Source of the DNA: Candidatus Aenigmatarchaeota archaeon
GTDB lineage: Archaea; Aenigmatarchaeota; Aenigmatarchaeia; QMZP01
DNA length: 64,000 nt
Reading direction: 5' to 3'
NCBI GenBank assembly: GCA_016783545.1
Contig: JADHWJ010000005.1
Coordinates: forward strand, 1,605-65,604
Numbering within the stretch: the first letter of the stretch is position 1; the number at the start of each line of letters is the position of its first letter. The notes beneath the pieces were generated by a model, which searched no databases, had not been told where the DNA came from, and was given only the letters and a program-made list of their open reading frames with translations. Shown one piece after another: positions 934 through 17,090 of the stretch. The position numbers and the translations under genes were made by a program.

Positions 934-3225
934 ATGAGTAAATATTGGAATATTTTAGTCTGTGCTCTGTTTGGGTCACTCTTGCTAGTATTCCCTGTTT
1001 CAGCTTATGTTGGAATGAATGTGAATCTTGATAGCGATATATTTTCAAAGGGTGAAATCATAAGTGGGGAGATGAGCATAAACTTTGACGAGTTTCCTGC
1101 AAATAATTTTGTGAGTGCTGGAATTGTTGGGGAGAATGCCTCTAAATTAAGGGTTTCTGATTATATAAAATCAGCTGAGAATTATTCTTTCCGTGCAGAG
1201 GACTTTGATTATGTTCTGCGGGTTGAAGGTGTAAACAGTTATACAGAATACCCTGACATTAATTTTAACTTTAAATTAAGGGTATTTACAACAACAGGTC
1301 CTAGTAGAATACCATGGTCTGAGGAAACAACTGTTGTGAATGCTTATATAAGTGGTGACGAGAAACTGAAATTTATTTACAATGTGAGCAAGGCAATAGG
1401 CATGCCAGTGGAGGCAAATGACGAAGATACTGTGTGGTCAATAAAGCACCTAACAGATGCCAGGGTTAATGGAACAATGAGAATGGCGTGCGGAAGTCAG
1501 TTGTATGGTGGATACTATACAAGCTCAAATGGGTGGGCAACAGCAGATCTTTCAGCACTATCACCAACACAGGTAGGAAACGATGCTATATTTTATCTGG
1601 GTGTGAAATTCGATAATGAAAGTCTGAGTGGTGCAGGAAGAACACTTTTTGATGGAAGTGGGGGGGTATACAAAAATGGCGTGTACTTAAGCTCTCCTGG
1701 ATATGCTGAATGGAATGGCTCAGAAGGGAAGATTCTGATACATAATTATGATTACCTTTCAAGATATGAGGTGATTTTCCTTCCGCCGAACGGGCCGCTA
1801 TTCTGTGCCTATACAGATCATTCAGTTCCAAGAACAGAACAATGGAACACAGAAACAACAGTGAACGAAGAAACAAGTTTCACAGAACCATATGAATGGG
1901 TAGTTCCCCAGCAGTTTCTGGACAATCAGGCTCCGGACTGTCCTGGAGGGACAACTGACTGTTCCAAAACAGTCTCAGATTGGAATGCAATTCTTTTGAC
2001 ATCAAGCGTTACTCTGGATTTTAGCGTGGATAAGCCAACCAAAGAAATCTCAGCAGAAACAACAAGAAAAACACTTGATAGGGATTATACCGAAAAGATT
2101 AACATATCGCGTTTTCTGATAAGCTCTGACATAGCTGGACAATATTATCTTGATTTTATCTTATACAAAGATCAAGATCAGCTCTTCAAGTTAACAAAAA
2201 CAATCAACACGTGCGAGGATGCTGATTCTGATGGTTTTTGCATAGAGCAAGATGATTGTGATGATGGAAATCCTCTAAGATATCCAGGCGCTCCTGAATT
2301 ATGTGATAATACAGATAATGATTGTGATGGGCAGAAAGATGAAGAGTTTATGCAGGCTGGAAAAAGGCTGGGCGACCCATGTGGTATAGGTGCTTGTAAA
2401 GGGAGATGGGTATGTGAACCAGGTGGTTTAGATGTCTATTGTAATTCCAGTGCCACTAATATTGTTGATGAGATCTGCAATAATGGTATAGACGATGATT
2501 GTGACGGAACAGTAGATGAAGAATATGATATTGTTGACGATGAAATAATTGAAACCTGCATCTGTAAGGGAGGCGATACAAGAGCTTGTGGAAGCGATGT
2601 TGGTATTTGCACAAAAGGTTATCAGATATGTGTTCTGGGGAATTGGAGCCAGTGCATAGATGATGTCAGAGGAAAAGAAGAGATATGTAATGGAATGGAC
2701 GATGATTGCGATGGGATAATAGATGATATAAACAATGTTACACATGTTAGTTCTACTAGGTGTGCTTGTTCTGGTGGAAATATACCAGCCTTAGAGGACT
2801 GTAATGGTATAGATGATGATTGCAATGGGTTTATAGATGATGGTGTTTCATGCTGTATTGAAGGGAATACAAGGTCGTGTGGTGAAACCGAAGGTGAGTG
2901 TTCATCAGGAACTTCAAGATGTGTTGGTGGTAAATGGGGAGACTGTTTTGGTGCTATAATCCCTGTATCAGAGGTCTGTTATGATAGCCTGGATAATGAC
3001 TGTGATGGAACTGTTGATGAAGGCTGTATCATAGAAGATACCTGTAAAAACAGAATAAAGGACATAAATGAAGTTGGAATAGACTGTGGTGGGGTGTGCA
3101 CAACAATATGTGCTGATCCATTCCCCTTTATGATTATAGCAATTCTTGTTATCCTAATAATAGTAATTTTCGCTGTTTTGCAGATAAAAGGCGTGTTTAC
3201 TGAGTCAGAACAAACTGCATACTGA
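934..3225 (+). CDS. Secreted, membrane-anchored Cys/Asp-rich surface protein with MopE-type repeats
   Basis: N-terminal signal-like hydrophobic segment. At least six repeats of the pattern C-N/D-x-x-D-D-D-C-D-G (e.g. CDNTDNDCDGQKDEE, CNNGIDDDCDGTVDEE). C-terminal GIDCGGVC motif followed by a TM helix (FMIIAILVILIIVIFAVL). Confidence 0.8.
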   Translation: MSKYWNILVCALFGSLLLVFPVSAYVGMNVNLDSDIFSKGEIISGEMSINFDEFPANNFVSAGIVGENASKLRVSDYIKSAENYSFRAEDFDYVLRVEGVNSYTEYPDINFNFKLRVFTTTGPSRIPWSEETTVVNAYISGDEKLKFIYNVSKAIGMPVEANDEDTVWSIKHLTDARVNGTMRMACGSQLYGGYYTSSNGWATADLSALSPTQVGNDAIFYLGVKFDNESLSGAGRTLFDGSGGVYKNGVYLSSPGYAEWNGSEGKILIHNYDYLSRYEVIFLPPNGPLFCAYTDHSVPRTEQWNTETTVNEETSFTEPYEWVVPQQFLDNQAPDCPGGTTDCSKTVSDWNAILLTSSVTLDFSVDKPTKEISAETTRKTLDRDYTEKINISRFLISSDIAGQYYLDFILYKDQDQLFKLTKTINTCEDADSDGFCIEQDDCDDGNPLRYPGAPELCDNTDNDCDGQKDEEFMQAGKRLGDPCGIGACKGRWVCEPGGLDVYCNSSATNIVDEICNNGIDDDCDGTVDEEYDIVDDEIIETCICKGGDTRACGSDVGICTKGYQICVLGNWSQCIDDVRGKEEICNGMDDDCDGIIDDINNVTHVSSTRCACSGGNIPALEDCNGIDDDCNGFIDDGVSCCIEGNTRSCGETEGECSSGTSRCVGGKWGDCFGAIIPVSEVCYDSLDNDCDGTVDEGCIIEDTCKNRIKDINEVGIDCGGVCTTICADPFPFMIIAILVILIIVIFAVLQIKGVFTESEQTAY

Positions 3226-3978
3226 TTGACCATCCTTTGCAACAATTGTCTTTATACCAGATTCCTTTTCTATCCATTTTCCCTCTTTTTCAGCTATTCC
3301 ATTCATCATAAGGAATCCAAAATGCTGAAGAATTGCTAGTTTAGGTTTTACTTCCTTTAATATTTTGACTGCATCTCTACTATTCATATGCTTTGGCCAT
3401 TCACTGTTTCTGGGTCTTAGCAGATTTAGAATAAGATAGTCACAATCACTAAACTGTTTTCCCAGACCATTGAAGTATTCCCCATCAGATGTGTATCCTA
3501 TTGTGCTGCTTCCTTTAAAAATAAAGCCAATTCCTTTTGGGTCTCCATGAATGGTCTTGGTTGCGGTTATCTCTATTTTTCCAATATTAGTTTTGTCCTT
3601 GGGTTTTAAAATTTTATATTTTTCAAGTGCACTTAAATGGTATTTTGAGAAAAAAGATACAAATTCTGGTTCAAGGCCATTAATAATGGTTTCATTTGTC
3701 AATAAAACACCCTTCTTCTTAGTAGTTCCTTGTGTCATTGCCTCTATAACAACCTTTGCATCAGTATAATGATCTGGATGGCAATGAGAAACCAGTATTC
3801 CAGTAAGCTTGCTTAAATCAACTTTGTATTGTTTGGCTCTTACTAATGCGCCTGGTCCAGGGTCTATGTGAAGCATTTCATTATCCATTTTGAGAATCCA
3901 GCCACCTGTAGCATGGATCTGTCTTGATGTGACAAATCTCCCCCCACCTGTACCAAGAAAGGTTAATTTTGCAGTCAT
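3205..3978 (-). CDS. MBL-fold metallo-hydrolase
   Basis: TFLGTGGG at the N-terminus and the HxHxDH motif (SHCHPDHY). Length of 257 aa is typical for the family. Confidence 0.85.
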   Translation of the reverse strand: MTAKLTFLGTGGGRFVTSRQIHATGGWILKMDNEMLHIDPGPGALVRAKQYKVDLSKLTGILVSHCHPDHYTDAKVVIEAMTQGTTKKKGVLLTNETIINGLEPEFVSFFSKYHLSALEKYKILKPKDKTNIGKIEITATKTIHGDPKGIGFIFKGSSTIGYTSDGEYFNGLGKQFSDCDYLILNLLRPRNSEWPKHMNSRDAVKILKEVKPKLAILQHFGFLMMNGIAEKEGKWIEKESGIKTIVAKDGQSVCSLF

Positions 3979-12789: not shown

Positions 12790-13242
12790 GCTTTATAATT
12801 GAATGATTATTTTTTATAGTTTCAGCTCTTAAGATATAGACCTATCGTCTATATTTTTTGTTCAGATTTAGCCTTCACAAAAGAGGTTAATAAGCAAAAC
12901 AAAGTAATGATTAGAACTGTAGTCAAGAATTGCAGTCAGATGCGACTGGGGGTGAGCCAATGCCTTTTCAATATCCAGCGGTGAAATACGAGCGGTTTCC
13001 GATGATTCCAATTTTTTGGAGGAGGAAGCTGAATAGGCTTAATGCTTAAATACTTTCTTTTCTAATCATTATATAGCAAGACAAAGTGTAATAGCTTGTC
13101 TTACTTTCACAACTCATTGAACCATTTCAAAGAGAACAGCGAAACACTTATTCTTGAGTATATTGTTAGCCGAAATCTCCTCGTCTTTTGAAAGAAATTT
13201 GCATGGAATTGCAAGAACCGATTCTCTGAAAGGAGGAACAGC

Positions 13243-13374
13243 ATGGCAAAGAAAGCGGCTAAGAAGGATCCTAGGGTGAGATCGGATTTCTTTGGCCGTC
13301 ATCTCACCATCAAAGCCTGTGCAAAGAAGTACGGGTTATCGATCTGTGCTGTGAGGAGAATACTCGGATATTAG
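13243..13374 (+). CDS. Possible 43-aa HTH peptide in GC-rich island 2
   Basis: Own translation: MAKKAAKKDPRVRSDFFGRHLTIKACAKKYGLSICAVRRILGY. AAAGGAGG lies 6 nt upstream. The HTH-like segment resembles transposase or resolvase N-terminal HTHs. Confidence 0.3.
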   Translation: MAKKAAKKDPRVRSDFFGRHLTIKACAKKYGLSICAVRRILGY

Positions 13375-13940
13375 TAATGTGTGCGCATTGGCCCTTCCGA
13401 TGGCGATTGGAGGAAGTGTATGATGGCTGCGTTCTTGGCGTTAAGGGTCGAGACGAGCTGAACAAGAAGAAAAAGTAAAGCTCTGGAGTAGGGAGTATAA
13501 TCGATCCGATCGCAACTCCCTGCTCCGAACAGATTCACCTCTGGTAATCCCGCTCCCGTGGCCTGCTGTACCCAAGGGGCGCAGGCGCTCGCCGGATTGG
13601 AAGGATTGCCATATGAAGAGGATAAGATATGCGCCTGCGCCCTGAAAACTCAATTTCCAGACAACAGTGGCCTCTGATAGACTGAAAGGAGGTGAATGCT
13701 TTTGGCGAGGAAGGCAGCTAAGGTCCGAAGAAGTCGCAGAGCCAGCAAGAGGAGATAGGCCAAGAAGAAAAAGTGCGGTCTGTCTTGTGCGTGATAGAGA
13801 GAGTCTCTGACTCGCTCTAACAATCTCTACTCGCAGGGGCAAGCAGCGCACGAAGAAGTATGTGCCACTTCCTGTTGCCCCTTTATATTGTCTATTAAGC
13901 GGGATATAATGTAAGATATTGTTATGAAAAAAATCTAAAA

Positions 13941-14219
13941 TGCAACCGCCGGGATTTCCGAATTTTTTCTGGAAGGCCTTGACCTCTTTATTCGAACCCG
14001 GATCACAAGCTATCTTCTTTTTCTTGGAAGCGATCTGATTTCGAAGAAATCAGGAAGCTCCTTTTTGATGAAGCTTTTTGTTGAAAAAGCTTCTTGGAAG
14101 GCTTGGGTCCTTTAATGGAATGTTTTGGAAGCCATAATTTTTGCGAAGCAAAAATAGGCTCCTTTCTTGCTAAAGCTTCTTTGTTGAAAAGAAGCTTTCT
14201 ACCATTAGACTACGGTTGC
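13941..14219 (-). tRNA. tRNA-Gly(UCC) interrupted by about three intron regions (D-loop ~89 nt, canonical 37/38 ~83 nt, T-loop ~36 nt)
   Basis: Manually assembled exons:
- Acceptor GCAACCG/CGGTTGC with discriminator A.
- D arm GTCT-AATGGTA...GGAC.
- Anticodon arm CAAGC-CTTCCA[intron]A-GCTTG.
- T arm CCGGG-TTCGAAT[intron]-CCCGG.
Exons total 71 nt; 71+89+83+36 = 279, the gene length. Oligo-T follows the 3' end. The exon sequence resembles archaeal tRNA-Gly. Confidence 0.75.
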
Positions 14220-14240: not shown

Positions 14241-14300
14241 TATTTTATAAATAAAGATTTCCACTGATCTTGGATCAGTGGTTATTATTTAGGAAAATAT
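14241..14300 (-). promoter_or_regulatory. tRNA-Gly promoter (TATA/BRE about 29 nt upstream) plus a conserved upstream block shared with tRNA-Pro
   Basis: tttataaataaagatttccactg ... tattatttaggaaaata is shared with 16923-16984. A perfect hairpin ccactgat-cttg-gatcagtgg is present in this copy. Confidence 0.5.
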
Positions 14301-14375: not shown

Positions 14376-16004
14376 CTATGCTGCTTCTATATAGACAGGG
14401 GTCTTTCCCAGCTTGATTTTTATGGGATTACCTCTTATTTCCTCAGATTTGAAGTCTTTATTATACTTTACCTCAGCACCAACTGCTTTCTTTGGAATAG
14501 TTTCTGTGACCAAAGCGCTGTCAAAATTCAGTCTGATTTCTGACTGTTTCTTTTCAATACAGTCTTTCTCACATTTATTCACACAGTTATCCATTCCCAT
14601 ATAATCTCCCTTATTTTCATTTATGCAGCTATTAACGCATTTTTCATTTCTTGGGCATTTTTTCCACCAGTCCCACCAGGCAACAATCACTGTTTTCCCA
14701 TTTTTGCTGAATTTGTATGCATATGCATCCTTGGGCGTGTTGATAGTTTCGATATTATCCCAATCAGAGCCTCTTAACATCTCTATGAGTTTCTTAAAAG
14801 AATAATAGCTGAGTTTTTTTACACCCCATCCAGGATCTGGGCAGGGATTCCAGGTCTTGGGGTCGCATTTTTCATCCCCTTTTCCGTTTGGGACTCCATT
14901 ATAAATTAGTCCCATGTTATTGAATTTCACATGTAGGTCACCCTGATATATATCATGCTCGAAAATGGTTGACCAAGGAATTTTCTTTGCACCGTTTGCG
15001 ATATTAAAAACAAATTTCTTGACAAGATATTCTGCTTGGTCATGTTCGGTCTGGTAGGTGCTCATAAATTCTTTTCTTTCTTCAAGGTCTATGCCAGTGT
15101 ATGTTGCACCAGCTCTTATCAGAACCTCTTTTTCTCCATAGTCGTATTTCTCTAGGAAATCATAGATATCCTGAACAGTAACATCCTTTAGGTTATTTTG
15201 GTAGGTGTGGAGCCATCCAAACCAGTGATTCTCAAAGTAATCAAAAACAGCGTATTCGGTATCTGAAGCTTTTAGTTCCTTAAAAACTGCTTCATAGAAA
15301 ATTATATCACCACTGTTTGGGGTAAGAATATCAAAGCCTTCTGCCAGTCCGCCCAGAACGATTTTTGATTTGGGCGATAGTTTTCTTATAATCTCAGCAG
15401 AATCAACAGCAAAATTCACATAGGCTTTGGCAGCACTTTCAGTGTCTCCAAACGTTGATTTATACTCTGATTTTATCTCATTGAAGAGGTTCCATCTCGC
15501 GACATACCATTCAGGATTATTAGATTTCTTTTTTCCATAATCATTCACATGGTTTATAAGGGCTGTCAGATAGTTTCTGTAGGCCTGTCTTGAAACAGGG
15601 CCGTCTGGATGAAAGCTTTTTCCTCTCTCCCTTTCCTTGCCGTCAGTGAATTCGTTTTTGGTTATGGGATGCAAAACTATCCATAGGTTCGCATTTCCTT
15701 TACCAACAACCTCATCAATTAGTTTGTCAGCGTCGCTGAAATCATATCTCACTTTTTTGCATTTCTTATTTTCGCATATTTCCTCTTCTTTACGACTTAA
15801 AGAATCAACAACAAAGCCGGCTTCGCCATTGGTTTCACTTAGACCAAGATCTAATAGAACATCTCCTAATTTGTTTAGGGGTTCCCTTCCCTCATTGTGC
15901 GTGGTTGGGTTGCTTAAACCAAACGGCATTTCTGTCGATTTTTCTATCTGAACACAGCCACTGACCAGAACTAATAATATCAAACCAAAGATTATAAGTT
16001 TCAT
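14376..16004 (-). CDS. Secreted lipoprotein, clan GH-A-like glycoside hydrolase (tentative)
   Basis: Lipobox-like LVLVSGC after the signal peptide. WNLFNEI (NE acid/base-like motif) in a TIM-barrel-sized domain. Cys-rich segment near the C-terminus. Confidence 0.55.
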   Translation of the reverse strand: MKLIIFGLILLVLVSGCVQIEKSTEMPFGLSNPTTHNEGREPLNKLGDVLLDLGLSETNGEAGFVVDSLSRKEEEICENKKCKKVRYDFSDADKLIDEVVGKGNANLWIVLHPITKNEFTDGKERERGKSFHPDGPVSRQAYRNYLTALINHVNDYGKKKSNNPEWYVARWNLFNEIKSEYKSTFGDTESAAKAYVNFAVDSAEIIRKLSPKSKIVLGGLAEGFDILTPNSGDIIFYEAVFKELKASDTEYAVFDYFENHWFGWLHTYQNNLKDVTVQDIYDFLEKYDYGEKEVLIRAGATYTGIDLEERKEFMSTYQTEHDQAEYLVKKFVFNIANGAKKIPWSTIFEHDIYQGDLHVKFNNMGLIYNGVPNGKGDEKCDPKTWNPCPDPGWGVKKLSYYSFKKLIEMLRGSDWDNIETINTPKDAYAYKFSKNGKTVIVAWWDWWKKCPRNEKCVNSCINENKGDYMGMDNCVNKCEKDCIEKKQSEIRLNFDSALVTETIPKKAVGAEVKYNKDFKSEEIRGNPIKIKLGKTPVYIEAA

Positions 16005-16720: not shown

Positions 16721-16899
16721 TGGGACTACCCGGATTTTCAGTTTTGCTGAAAATGTTTTGCTTCAGCAAAATAATTTGAACCGGGGTCTCGAGCTGTTTT
16801 TGAGCCATTCTTTCTTTTCCTTGAGGCTTTCTTGCGAAAGCTTCTGAAAGAAAGGCTCACCCAAAGCTCGGATGCTAGACCAAACTACACTATAGTCCC
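16721..16899 (-). tRNA. tRNA-Pro(UGG) with two introns (canonical 37/38 ~64 nt, T-loop ~40 nt)
   Basis: Manually assembled exons:
- Acceptor GGGACTA/TAGTCCC.
- Anticodon arm CGAGC-TTTGGG[intron]A-GCTCG.
- GAGACCCCGGTTCAAAT[intron]CCGGG matches archaeal tRNA-Pro.
Exons total 75 nt; 75+64+40 = 179, the gene length. Oligo-T follows the 3' end. Confidence 0.8.
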
Positions 16900-16920: not shown

Positions 16921-16984
16921 TTGTTTATAAATAAAGATTTCCACTGGTTAAGACTAGTGACTATTATTTAGGAAAATACCTTAG
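16921..16984 (-). promoter_or_regulatory. tRNA-Pro promoter plus conserved upstream block (second copy), abutting the tRNA-Thr 3' end
   Basis: Shares 23 nt and 17 nt identical segments with 14244-14300. TATA-like tttatttataaa lies about 28-30 nt upstream of the tRNA-Pro 5' end. Confidence 0.5.
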
Positions 16985-17090
16985 AGCCCCTGAGGCGATT
17001 TGAACGCCTAACCTACTGCTTACGAAGCAGTTGCTCTGGAACGCAAAACTGTGTAAAAAACAGAGTTTTGTACCGTTGAGCTACAGAGGC
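16985..17090 (-). tRNA. tRNA-Thr(CGU) with a ~34-nt intron at the D-loop/D-stem junction
   Basis: Manually assembled exons:
- Acceptor GCCTCTG/CAGGGGC (one G-U pair).
- D arm GCTC-AACGGTA[intron caaaactctgttttttacacagttttgcgttcca]GAGC.
- Anticodon arm ACTGC-TTCGTAA-GCAGT.
- T arm AGGCG-TTCAAAT-CGCCT.
- Discriminator U. Confidence 0.8.

Follow-up and report, generated by a model that had tools for sequence, protein, structure and literature searches.

In this work we have examined a 279-nucleotide (nt) locus on the minus strand of a 64,000-nt stretch of archaeal DNA (contig JADHWJ010000005.1), which we call the window. Judged from its sequence, the locus is very probably a functional tRNA-Gly(UCC) gene of a Candidatus Aenigmarchaeota archaeon, interrupted several times and spliced at bulge-helix-bulge (BHB) motifs, in which one intron has been duplicated or transposed within the gene. 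Three-intron tRNA genes with BHB motifs are already known; what is new, to our knowledge, is the phylum. The parts of the gene are listed in Table 1, where p denotes the position in the precursor (p = 14220 - window coordinate, p1-p279). The four exons amount to 71 nt and the three introns to 208 nt (89, 83 and 36 nt). ARAGORN recognized the spliced 71-nt sequence as tRNA-Gly(tcc), and its minimum free energy (MFE) fold was a perfect cloverleaf of -26.5 kcal/mol with stems of 7, 4, 5 and 5 bp and no mismatch. The conserved features of a tRNA were all found, namely U8, the GG in the D-loop, U33, the UCC anticodon, the UUCGAAU T-loop and A73, and the CCA at the 3' end is not encoded. When introns 1 and 3 were removed and intron 2 was left in, ARAGORN with the option -i reported a canonical intron, i(37,83). 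The initial annotation, made by a model, had described a 279-nt tRNA-Gly(UCC) gene with about 71 nt of exon sequence and introns of about 89, 83 and 36 nt, and its coordinates, isotype and intron positions proved to be correct. The exons are collinear and lie on one strand within 279 nt, so that this is neither a split nor a permuted tRNA gene.

The argument is carried by strict splice motifs and by the comparison with orthologues. In the motif geometry which we used, the 5' exon ends with one strand of the outer helix, the 4-nt strand of the central helix and two bulge nt; the 3' end of the intron is made up of the 4 nt complementary to this strand and of two bulge nt, and the 3' exon provides the third bulge nt followed by the second strand of the outer helix. 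All three junctions fit this geometry with zero mismatch, each with a 4-bp central helix and two 3-nt bulges, and with outer helices of 4, 5 and 5 bp. The initial annotation had named a lack of BHB motifs as grounds for abandoning its interpretation; both the motif scan and the fold place one at every junction. In the unconstrained MFE fold of the precursor the three central helices are present together with the anticodon stem and three of the five bp of the T stem. The entire hBH motif of intron 2 is found in this fold with pair probabilities of 0.68-0.98, and the central helix of intron 3 reaches 0.75-0.84. The potential inner helices of introns 1, 2 and 3 comprise 3, 0 and 2 bp, and their pair probability in the ensemble is close to zero. 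With inner helices absent or weak, the predicted structures make all three motifs effectively relaxed (hBH-type), which would imply an EndA endonuclease of broad specificity; the relaxed hBH form is accepted by such enzymes (PMC4033280). We have also found that introns 1 and 2 each possess a stable hairpin, called hairpin A below, which begins 1-2 nt past the 5' splice site and abuts the 5' bulge. In the modelled precursor this hairpin would supply the intron-side helix.

According to the pathway which we propose, transcription from the TATA box about 25 nt upstream would give a precursor of about 280 nt. Each 5' splice site has upstream of it a 4-nt stretch, AAUG (D-loop), CUUC (anticodon loop) or UUCG (T-loop), that would pair with 4 nt near the 3' end of the same intron; a BHB would form in each case, with the D, anticodon or T stem serving as its outer helix. 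Archaeal EndA would then cut two nt into each 3-nt bulge, an RtcB-type ligase would join the exons, and the introns would probably be circularised. This would yield a canonical tRNA of 71 nt, with CCA added afterwards.

Homologues of the HIT protein encoded nearby gave us access to the Thr-Pro-HIT-Gly neighbourhood in other Aenigmarchaeota assemblies, and one further locus, L066, came from CysRS loci. Our sample consists of nine orthologous tRNA-Gly(UCC) loci, six of which were aligned to the mature sequence from the window, in each case over all 71 nt and with 70-83% identity. The orthologous genes carry one or two introns, at four kinds of site across the nine loci (the junctions at about 29/30 were placed by eye and by alignment). 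All nine are interrupted and none is intron-less at this locus; an intron at 20/21 is absent from all nine, and none of them has three introns. The 20-nt intron of L066 starts with AGAAG and ends with GAAGAA, like intron 2. As for the neighbouring genes, the tRNA-Thr orthologues are intron-less in L094 and L096 and have introns in L098 and L102, and the tRNA-Pro orthologues range from no intron in L102 to two in the window and in L096. Conserved exons combined with freely varying introns are the expected signature of real exon-intron boundaries, and since all nine sampled loci are interrupted, interruption appears to be the normal state of the gene in this clade. The introns at 37/38 and 59/60 sit at sites widely used in the clade, and the 20/21 intron would be a lineage-specific gain.

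Table 1. Features of the tRNA-Gly(UCC) gene, its surroundings in the window and its orthologues in other assemblies (L numbers). Helices are given as 5' strand/3' strand; a colon in the bulges marks the predicted cleavage site; h and h' are the lengths of outer and inner helix.
Feature	Coordinates	Strand	Description
tRNA-Gly(UCC) gene, 279 nt	13941-14219	minus	4 exons and 3 introns; from sequence reading, ARAGORN, fold and orthologue alignment
Exon 1, 19 nt	14201-14219 (p1-19)	minus	acceptor 5' strand GCAACCG, U8 A9, D-stem 5' strand GUCU, D-loop AAUGGU
Intron 1, 89 nt	14112-14200 (p20-108)	minus	position 20/21, D-loop
Exon 2, 17 nt	14095-14111 (p109-125)	minus	A21, D-stem 3' strand GGAC, C26, anticodon-stem 5' strand CAAGC, anticodon loop CUUCCA
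Intron 2, 83 nt	14012-14094 (p126-208)	minus	canonical position 37/38
Exon 3, 21 nt	13991-14011 (p209-229)	minus	A38, anticodon-stem 3' strand GCUUG, variable region UGAU, T-stem 5' strand CCGGG, T-loop UUCGAA
Intron 3, 36 nt	13955-13990 (p230-265)	minus	position 59/60, T-loop
Exon 4, 14 nt	13941-13954 (p266-279)	minus	U60, T-stem 3' strand CCCGG, acceptor 3' strand CGGUUGC, discriminator A73
BHB of intron 1 (20/21)			outer GUCU/GGAC (D stem), central AAUG/CAUU, bulges GU:A and AA:A, potential inner GAA/UUC (3 bp); h=4, h'=3
BHB of intron 2 (37/38), relaxed hBH			outer CAAGC/GCUUG (anticodon stem), central CUUC/GAAG, bulges CA:A and AU:A, no inner helix; h=5, h'=0
BHB of intron 3 (59/60)			outer CCGGG/CCCGG (T stem), central UUCG/CGGA, bulges AA:U and AA:U, potential inner 2 bp; h=5, h'=2
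Module copy 1, in intron 1	14120-14198	minus	hairpin A 14198-14172, linker AGCAAGAAA, GGAGCC, inner hairpin with UUC loop, GGCUUCCAA; nhmmer E 1.9e-13
Module copy 2, in intron 2	14018-14095	minus	hairpin A 14093-14070, linker AUCAAAAA, GGAGC, inner hairpin with UUC loop, GCUUCCAA; nhmmer E 7e-15
Upstream cassette CAGTGGAAATCTTTATTTATAAA (23-mer)	14244-14266	minus	ends 24 nt before G1 of tRNA-Gly; contains the TATA-like box
TATA-like box TTTATAAA	14251-14244	minus	within the cassette CAGTGGAAATCTTTATTTATAAA; putative promoter element
T-rich tract TTTTAGATTTTTTT	13927-13940	minus	directly after the tRNA-Gly discriminator; likely archaeal terminator
tRNA-Pro(UGG), 179 nt	16721-16899	minus	introns at 37/38 (16859-16796, 64 nt) and 59/60 (16774-16735, 40 nt); orthologues exist
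tRNA-Thr(CGU), 106 nt	16985-17090	minus	one strict-BHB 34-nt intron at 20/21 (17071-17038); Rfam 56.6 bits
L066 tRNA-Gly(UCC)			37/38 only, 20 nt
L098/L099 tRNA-Gly(UCC)			one intron, 5' strand of anticodon stem (about 29/30)
L096 tRNA-Gly(UCC)			about 29/30 and 59/60
L106/L107 tRNA-Gly(UCC)			about 29/30 and 59/60
L102/L103 tRNA-Gly(UCC)			about 29/30 and 59/60
L104 tRNA-Gly(UCC)			37/38 and 59/60
L105 tRNA-Gly(UCC)			37/38 (14 nt) and a T-loop intron of about 151 nt

Several observations weigh against a functional, spliced gene. Default ARAGORN found no tRNA in the window and so missed tRNA-Gly, and Rfam, at both gathering and E-value thresholds, detected tRNA-Thr only and passed over tRNA-Gly and tRNA-Pro. 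No EndA (tRNA_int_endo) domain was found among the open reading frames (ORFs) of at least 150 aa in the window. The D stem and h' of intron 1 are weak, the ensemble favouring a continuous 6-bp helix over the D stem with its bulges, and the fully BHB-constrained fold lies 13 kcal/mol above the MFE. The window covers 64 kb of the genome, and a second, intact tRNA-Gly(UCC) may lie elsewhere. Lastly, with one mismatch allowed in the central helix, ARAGORN accepted hundreds of alternative "tRNAs" with spurious isotypes at the tRNA-Gly locus; such a flood means that ARAGORN calls cannot serve as independent evidence. Could the cloverleaf then be a computational artefact, the chosen deletions having merely yielded something tRNA-like? 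The spurious calls from permissive deletion are what this explanation has to offer. Under the strict scan, however, in which every strict BHB candidate on both strands of the window was removed singly and in pairs and about 7,350 constructs were passed to ARAGORN, the 128 kb searched yielded the tRNA-Gly locus, the neighbouring tRNA-Thr and one obvious artefact at the tRNA-Gly locus, and the spliced sequence is similar over its full length to the tRNA-Gly(UCC) genes of the six aligned relatives, most of them in the conserved neighbourhood. The orthologue alignment effectively refutes an artefact, to which we give next to no credence. The strict scan missed tRNA-Pro, because the motifs of this gene are relaxed. 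An independent anchor scan of the window (7-bp acceptor stem, U8, 5-bp T stem and G53-TTCRA) gave seven candidates, of which three were the real tRNA genes and four were AT-rich junk inside coding regions.

It may also be asked whether the locus is a decaying tRNA-Gly pseudogene which was inactivated by insertions of repeat elements and is left unspliced. Three insertions of 208 nt in all, two of them with the same repeat module (one that is tandemly amplified elsewhere, as described below), weak inner helices and room for a second gene copy outside the window would suit such a history, but every exon stem is intact and without mismatch, and each insertion coincides exactly with a 4-bp helix free of mismatches and a pair of 3-nt bulges. 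No invariant nucleotide is missing, the TATA-containing promoter cassette and the T-tract are both in place, and the nine sampled orthologous loci are interrupted too. A pseudogene is in our opinion very unlikely.

The second part of our interpretation of this functional, multiply interrupted gene concerns the relationship between its introns. Introns 1 and 2 can be aligned over about 75 nt, with z=9.0 and none of 500 dinucleotide shuffles scoring as high. Duplication or transposition of an intron within the gene, as suggested by the initial annotation, thus holds for these two, but it does not extend to intron 3, whose similarity to the other introns is not significant (z 0.2-0.5). For the same reason the CUUCCAG variant in the T-loop intron (CTTCCAG at 13975-13969) cannot be taken as a sign of relatedness, as had been done. 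The near-identical hairpins lie where they had been placed, at 14198-14172 in intron 1 and 14093-14070 in intron 2, as do the CTTCCAA sites at 14131-14125, at 14100-14094 in the anticodon loop and at 14030-14024. No significant similarity to any other intron compared was found for the tRNA-Thr intron and the 59/60 intron of tRNA-Pro, and a similarity of intron 1 to the first intron of tRNA-Pro (z=2.5) is suggestive only. Common to introns 1 and 2 are hairpin A of 10-11 bp, an A-rich linker ending in AAAGGAGC, an inner hairpin of 8 bp with a UUC loop, in which 4 bp differ by double compensatory changes, and the end GCUUCCAA, whose GCUUC pairs with GGAGC. The last 10-12 nt of the two introns differ because the tails pair with the local exon, CAUU with the D-loop and GAAG with the anticodon loop.

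The paralogy of the two introns is genuine and belongs to a wider, modular intron family of Aenigmarchaeota. A profile of the shared module, about 72 nt long, also matched L102 and L103, where it lies in the 59/60 intron of tRNA-Gly(UCC) (E 1e-15) and in the 59/60 intron of about 250 nt in tRNA-Thr(CGU) (E 2e-7). The distance from the 5' splice site to the start of the module is 1-3 nt in each of the four independent intron contexts. Among six copies AGGAGC and GCUUCCA are invariant, CUUCG is conserved and five pairs of hairpin A show compensatory changes; conservation of the inner hairpin does not extend to the L102/L103 copies. The tRNA-Gly 59/60 intron of L103 (4709-5012) is about 300 nt long and contains the 72-nt module as a tandem repeat of 2.2 copies with 96% identity. 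The corresponding intron of L102 (4709-4832) has 121 nt and a single, recombinant-looking copy, and its flanks are 99.8-99.9% identical to those of L103. This difference could be real copy-number variation or a collapse in short-read assembly. A CRISPR-like reading of the L103 array was rejected, as its "spacers" are themselves members of the hairpin-A family. The tRNA-Thr(CGU) gene of L102/L103 (3250-3638, plus strand, 389 nt) is interrupted not only in the T-loop but also at 37/38 or close to it. Its long T-loop intron opens with a copy of the module (3381-3455), behind which come an incomplete second unit of hairpin A and GCUUCCA and further hairpin modules, and these tRNA-Thr introns look like module mosaics.

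This family, family 1, thus occupies Gly 20/21, Gly 37/38, Gly 59/60 and Thr 59/60. Family 2 (UGAsCCUUUCUU...AAAGCsUCAAsGGAAA) is found in the 37/38 intron of tRNA-Pro in the window (16796-16859) and in L098 (3851-3971), and in the 59/60 intron of tRNA-Ile(GAU) in L100 (locus 1957-2114, minus strand), with z 4.3-5.8. The relationships among introns are incongruent with the host tRNA bodies, the module occupying two sites (20/21 and 37/38) in one gene, the 59/60 site of tRNA-Gly in another genome, and an intron of tRNA-Thr. With the module at differing sites and genes, and with 20/21 empty in the nine orthologous loci, movement is indicated rather than vertical descent. We propose that an intron was duplicated or transposed inside the tRNA-Gly gene by way of this structured module, that the module belongs to an intron family common to Aenigmarchaeota tRNA genes, and that the 20/21 intron acquired a body paralogous to the 37/38 intron. 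A metagenome scan with the intron-module pattern gave 12 loci, all of them the same chance match inside a human-gut bacterial gene, and two scans of viral contigs gave no match.

More questions are raised by the heptamer CUUCCAA. The initial annotation stated that the introns carry copies of the gene's own anticodon-loop sequence. This is literally true, but it is misleading, since GCUUCCA is intrinsic to the module: it forms the invariant 3' strand, pairs with GGAGC and is present even in a tRNA-Thr intron of another genome, and the two intronic CUUCCAA copies occupy homologous positions of the paralogous module. A link of this motif to the Gly anticodon loop is possible and not required. How, then, did the module come to lie at 37/38? 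In intron 2 it is flanked by an exact 10-nt direct repeat, CUUCCAAGAA (p120-129 and p190-199), one copy of which consists of the anticodon loop and the first intron bases and the other of the module end and the tail. Deletion of one CUUCCAAGAA and the intervening 60 nt leaves a 13-nt intron, and its ends resemble the canonical introns of L066 (20 nt) and L105 (14 nt). The junction of exon and intron 2, GCCUUCCA-AG-AAGCUU, resembles in turn the junction between tandem modules in L103, GCUUCCA-GC-AAGCUU. From these similarities we infer that the module probably entered or expanded at 37/38 through the homology provided by CUUCCAAGAA, and that the 20/21 intron arose later from one of its copies; events may also have run in the opposite order, or the module may have been acquired from a 59/60 intron.

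The direct repeats and the canonical-looking ends of the 13-nt remainder would also suit a composite intron 2, produced by insertion of a 60-nt element, with a 10-bp target duplication (CUUCCAAGAA), into an ancestral canonical intron that was short (AGAAAAAGAAGAU), perhaps with two-step or alternative splicing. Yet the second copy of CUUC has no outer helix and hence offers no cleavable BHB, GCUUCCA belongs to the module even in T-loop introns with no flanking duplicate, and the MFE fold contains one hBH motif spanning the whole 83 nt, so that a composite structure seems to us quite improbable. Somewhat better placed, if still unlikely, is the idea that the module in introns 1 and 2 is a functional small RNA, for instance a stable circular RNA or a protein-binding element, released by splicing. 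The invariance of AGGAGC and GCUUCCA and the conservation of CUUCG point in this direction, as do the structure of hairpin A, kept through compensatory changes in copies from two genomes and three intron positions, the 8 bp of the inner hairpin in the window, retained despite four double substitutions, and the constant start of the module just after the 5' splice site. The module has, however, no C or D boxes and no Rfam match, its inner hairpin is not maintained in the L102/L103 copies, it is absent from most orthologous genes, and tandem copy-number change together with possibly recent copies would explain the conservation without any function. A box C/D guide was rejected since no intron contains RUGAUGA and no snoRNA family reached the Rfam threshold, and an H/ACA RNA was rejected for lack of the boxes. 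The tRNA-Trp intron of Haloferax volcanii and other Euryarchaeota carries a box C/D guide RNA. The module is like that intron in being a structured, conserved RNA inside a tRNA intron which splicing would set free; it differs in having no C, D, C' or D' boxes and in that its motif is identical, and not complementary, to the anticodon loop.

Could the module instead be a self-propagating intron element of Aenigmarchaeota? We regard this as a possibility worth stating, on balance somewhat doubtful. The element would consist of hairpin A, AGGAGC, CUUCG and GCUUCCA; it would always start at an EndA cleavage site and provide the helix beside the 5' bulge, so that a new spliceable intron would need only a 4-nt match between the module tail and the target. 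It could then move from one site to another (D-loop, anticodon loop, T-loop) in several tRNA genes and multiply as a tandem array within an intron. Its invariant end GCUUCCAA mimics the anticodon loop of tRNA-Gly(UCC), and perhaps this mimicry seeded its entry at 37/38. If true, the module would be a concrete and experimentally tractable vehicle of archaeal tRNA-intron gain, the mechanism of which is called unknown in reviews.

Introns at 20/21 and 59/60, relaxed hBH and HBh' motifs and up to three introns per gene have been documented mainly in Thermoproteales (PMC4090602, PMC4033280, PMC8450103). The tRNA-Pro(UGG) of Pyrobaculum islandicum, for example, has introns at 25/26, 37/38 and 56/57 (Sugahara et al. 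2007/2008, as summarized in PMC4090602 and PMC8450103). Like the three-intron genes of Thermoproteales, our tRNA-Gly gene has one canonical and two non-canonical BHB introns and forms a cloverleaf only after all are removed, three being the documented maximum. It differs in that its host belongs to the DPANN archaea and is not a crenarchaeon, in its non-canonical sites (20/21 and 59/60), and in its long introns of 89 and 83 nt, which are paralogous within one gene. Similar introns across Thermoproteales tRNA genes were interpreted as large-scale transposition (Fujishima et al. 2010, as summarized in PMC4033280 and PMC4090602), and the mechanism is described there as unknown. Our families 1 and 2 resemble those transposed introns in their significant similarity across positions and genes, with intron 3 and the tRNA-Thr intron standing outside. 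They differ by their phylum, by the discrete, two-part structured module extending from the 5' splice site and by the tandem repeat in an intron of one genome.

In ARMAN and other DPANN archaea, relaxed BHB motifs (hBH, HBh' and BHL) and EndA enzymes of broad specificity, epsilon2 or alpha4 with an L3 loop, have been described (PMC3239211, PMC3488258, PMC5829648), and Aenigmarchaeota were outside the genomes analysed in these studies. The tRNA-Gly gene shares with such substrates the DPANN host, the non-canonical positions and motifs with no solid inner helix. DPANN variants of EndA with the L3 loop have been linked to more tRNA gene disruption (PMC5829648). The motifs described here would predict a broad-specificity EndA in Aenigmarchaeota, where the enzyme is uncharacterised so far. 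In Caldiarchaeum subterraneum the tRNA-Thr(GGU) locus is heterogeneous, and direct repeats of tRNA sequence were proposed as footprints of integration (PMC3293823). Our locus is similar in that intron gain differs among close genomes and tRNA sequence is found in direct repeats. It is unlike that case in having no recombinase-encoding element, in the shortness of the repeat (only 10 nt) and in the inserted unit, a non-coding module of 60-75 nt. In a limited literature search we found no description of multi-intron tRNAs in Aenigmarchaeota or of tandem modules in archaeal tRNA introns.

Why does a gene of a known kind deserve attention? ARAGORN and Rfam see little or nothing of the three adjacent tRNA genes in the window. 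DPANN genomes which seem short of tRNAs may hide them behind multiple long introns; this was already suspected from incomplete DPANN tRNA sets, which point to undetected disrupted genes (PMC5829648). For the question of how archaea gain tRNA introns, this clade also offers a compact natural experiment, with six intron configurations at four sites in one orthologous gene. The module itself bears on the spread of introns, being common to several genes and apparently variable in copy number between near-identical strains.

By sequence comparison the host is assigned to the DPANN archaea (Candidatus Aenigmarchaeota) and not to Thermoproteales. Two proteins encoded nearby, one of 542 aa next to tRNA-Gly and the HIT protein, match NCBI proteins with 100% identity, and these come from the metagenome-assembled genome (MAG) of a Candidatus Aenigmarchaeota archaeon (locus tag ISS36_02405). 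The best match of CysRS, at 59% identity, comes from an Aenigmatarchaeota MAG, in which CysRS and the tRNA are not syntenic. Archaeal Nre, AcnX and FtsZ are encoded in the window as well.

The three disrupted tRNA genes (Gly, Pro and Thr) lie on one strand within 3.2 kb and have six introns at three positions, 20/21, 37/38 and 59/60. The intron of tRNA-Thr has the same position as intron 1 of tRNA-Gly. We came upon tRNA-Pro, which the initial annotation, ARAGORN, Rfam and the strict BHB scan had all missed, through a short BLAST match of intron 1 to 16845-16827, and splicing in silico gave a 75-nt tRNA-Pro(tgg). The 23-mer CAGTGGAAATCTTTATTTATAAA upstream of tRNA-Gly occurs in two exact copies where none is expected, the second with identical spacing in front of tRNA-Pro. 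The upstream regions of tRNA-Gly (14244-14300) and tRNA-Pro (16924-16980), both on the minus strand, have about 75 nt in common that are not shared by tRNA-Thr; this stretch holds an inverted repeat, CCACTGATC..GATCAGTGG, and could represent either a promoter cassette that was duplicated or a tRNA promoter element specific to the lineage. The 542-aa ORF (14376-16004, minus strand) has no Pfam domain and lies between HIT and tRNA-Gly; in relatives such as L096 and L106 tRNA-Gly directly follows HIT. Its homologues are patchy (Omnitrophica, Parcubacteria and metagenome contigs) and unhelpful for synteny, and the pattern suggests an inserted, horizontally moving gene.

Directly downstream of tRNA-Gly there is a GC-rich island (13200-13900), with 47-63% GC compared to about 36% for the window and no convincing ORF; it gave no match to Pfam or Rfam. 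Its plus strand folds better than shuffled sequences (z=-3.0, from 20 shuffles only), and CUGAAAGGAGG occurs in it twice, followed each time by ATG and a short basic ORF. The island could be an unidentified structured RNA, a set of tiny genes or the remnant of an integrated element. A 16-nt exact match at 42342-42327 was dismissed as coincidental, as it sits in the N-terminal coding sequence of an ORF. Other long tRNA introns were encountered in the related assemblies. A 263-nt gene resembling tRNA-Thr(GGU) is present in L100 (2215-2477, plus strand) and L101 (1713-1975, plus strand); besides an intron at 59/60 it has a canonical one that is very long, and an ORF with a LAGLIDADG_3 homing-endonuclease domain (L100 1367-1906) lies a few hundred nt from it. 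In L076 (5554-5768, minus strand) ARAGORN reported a tRNA-Gly(gcc) with i(35,142); inspection by eye identifies it instead as tRNA-Cys(GCA), whose canonical intron measures about 140 nt. Its anticodon loop seems to recur at the intron end, an effect of the palindrome CUGCAG, which forms the central helix of the BHB.

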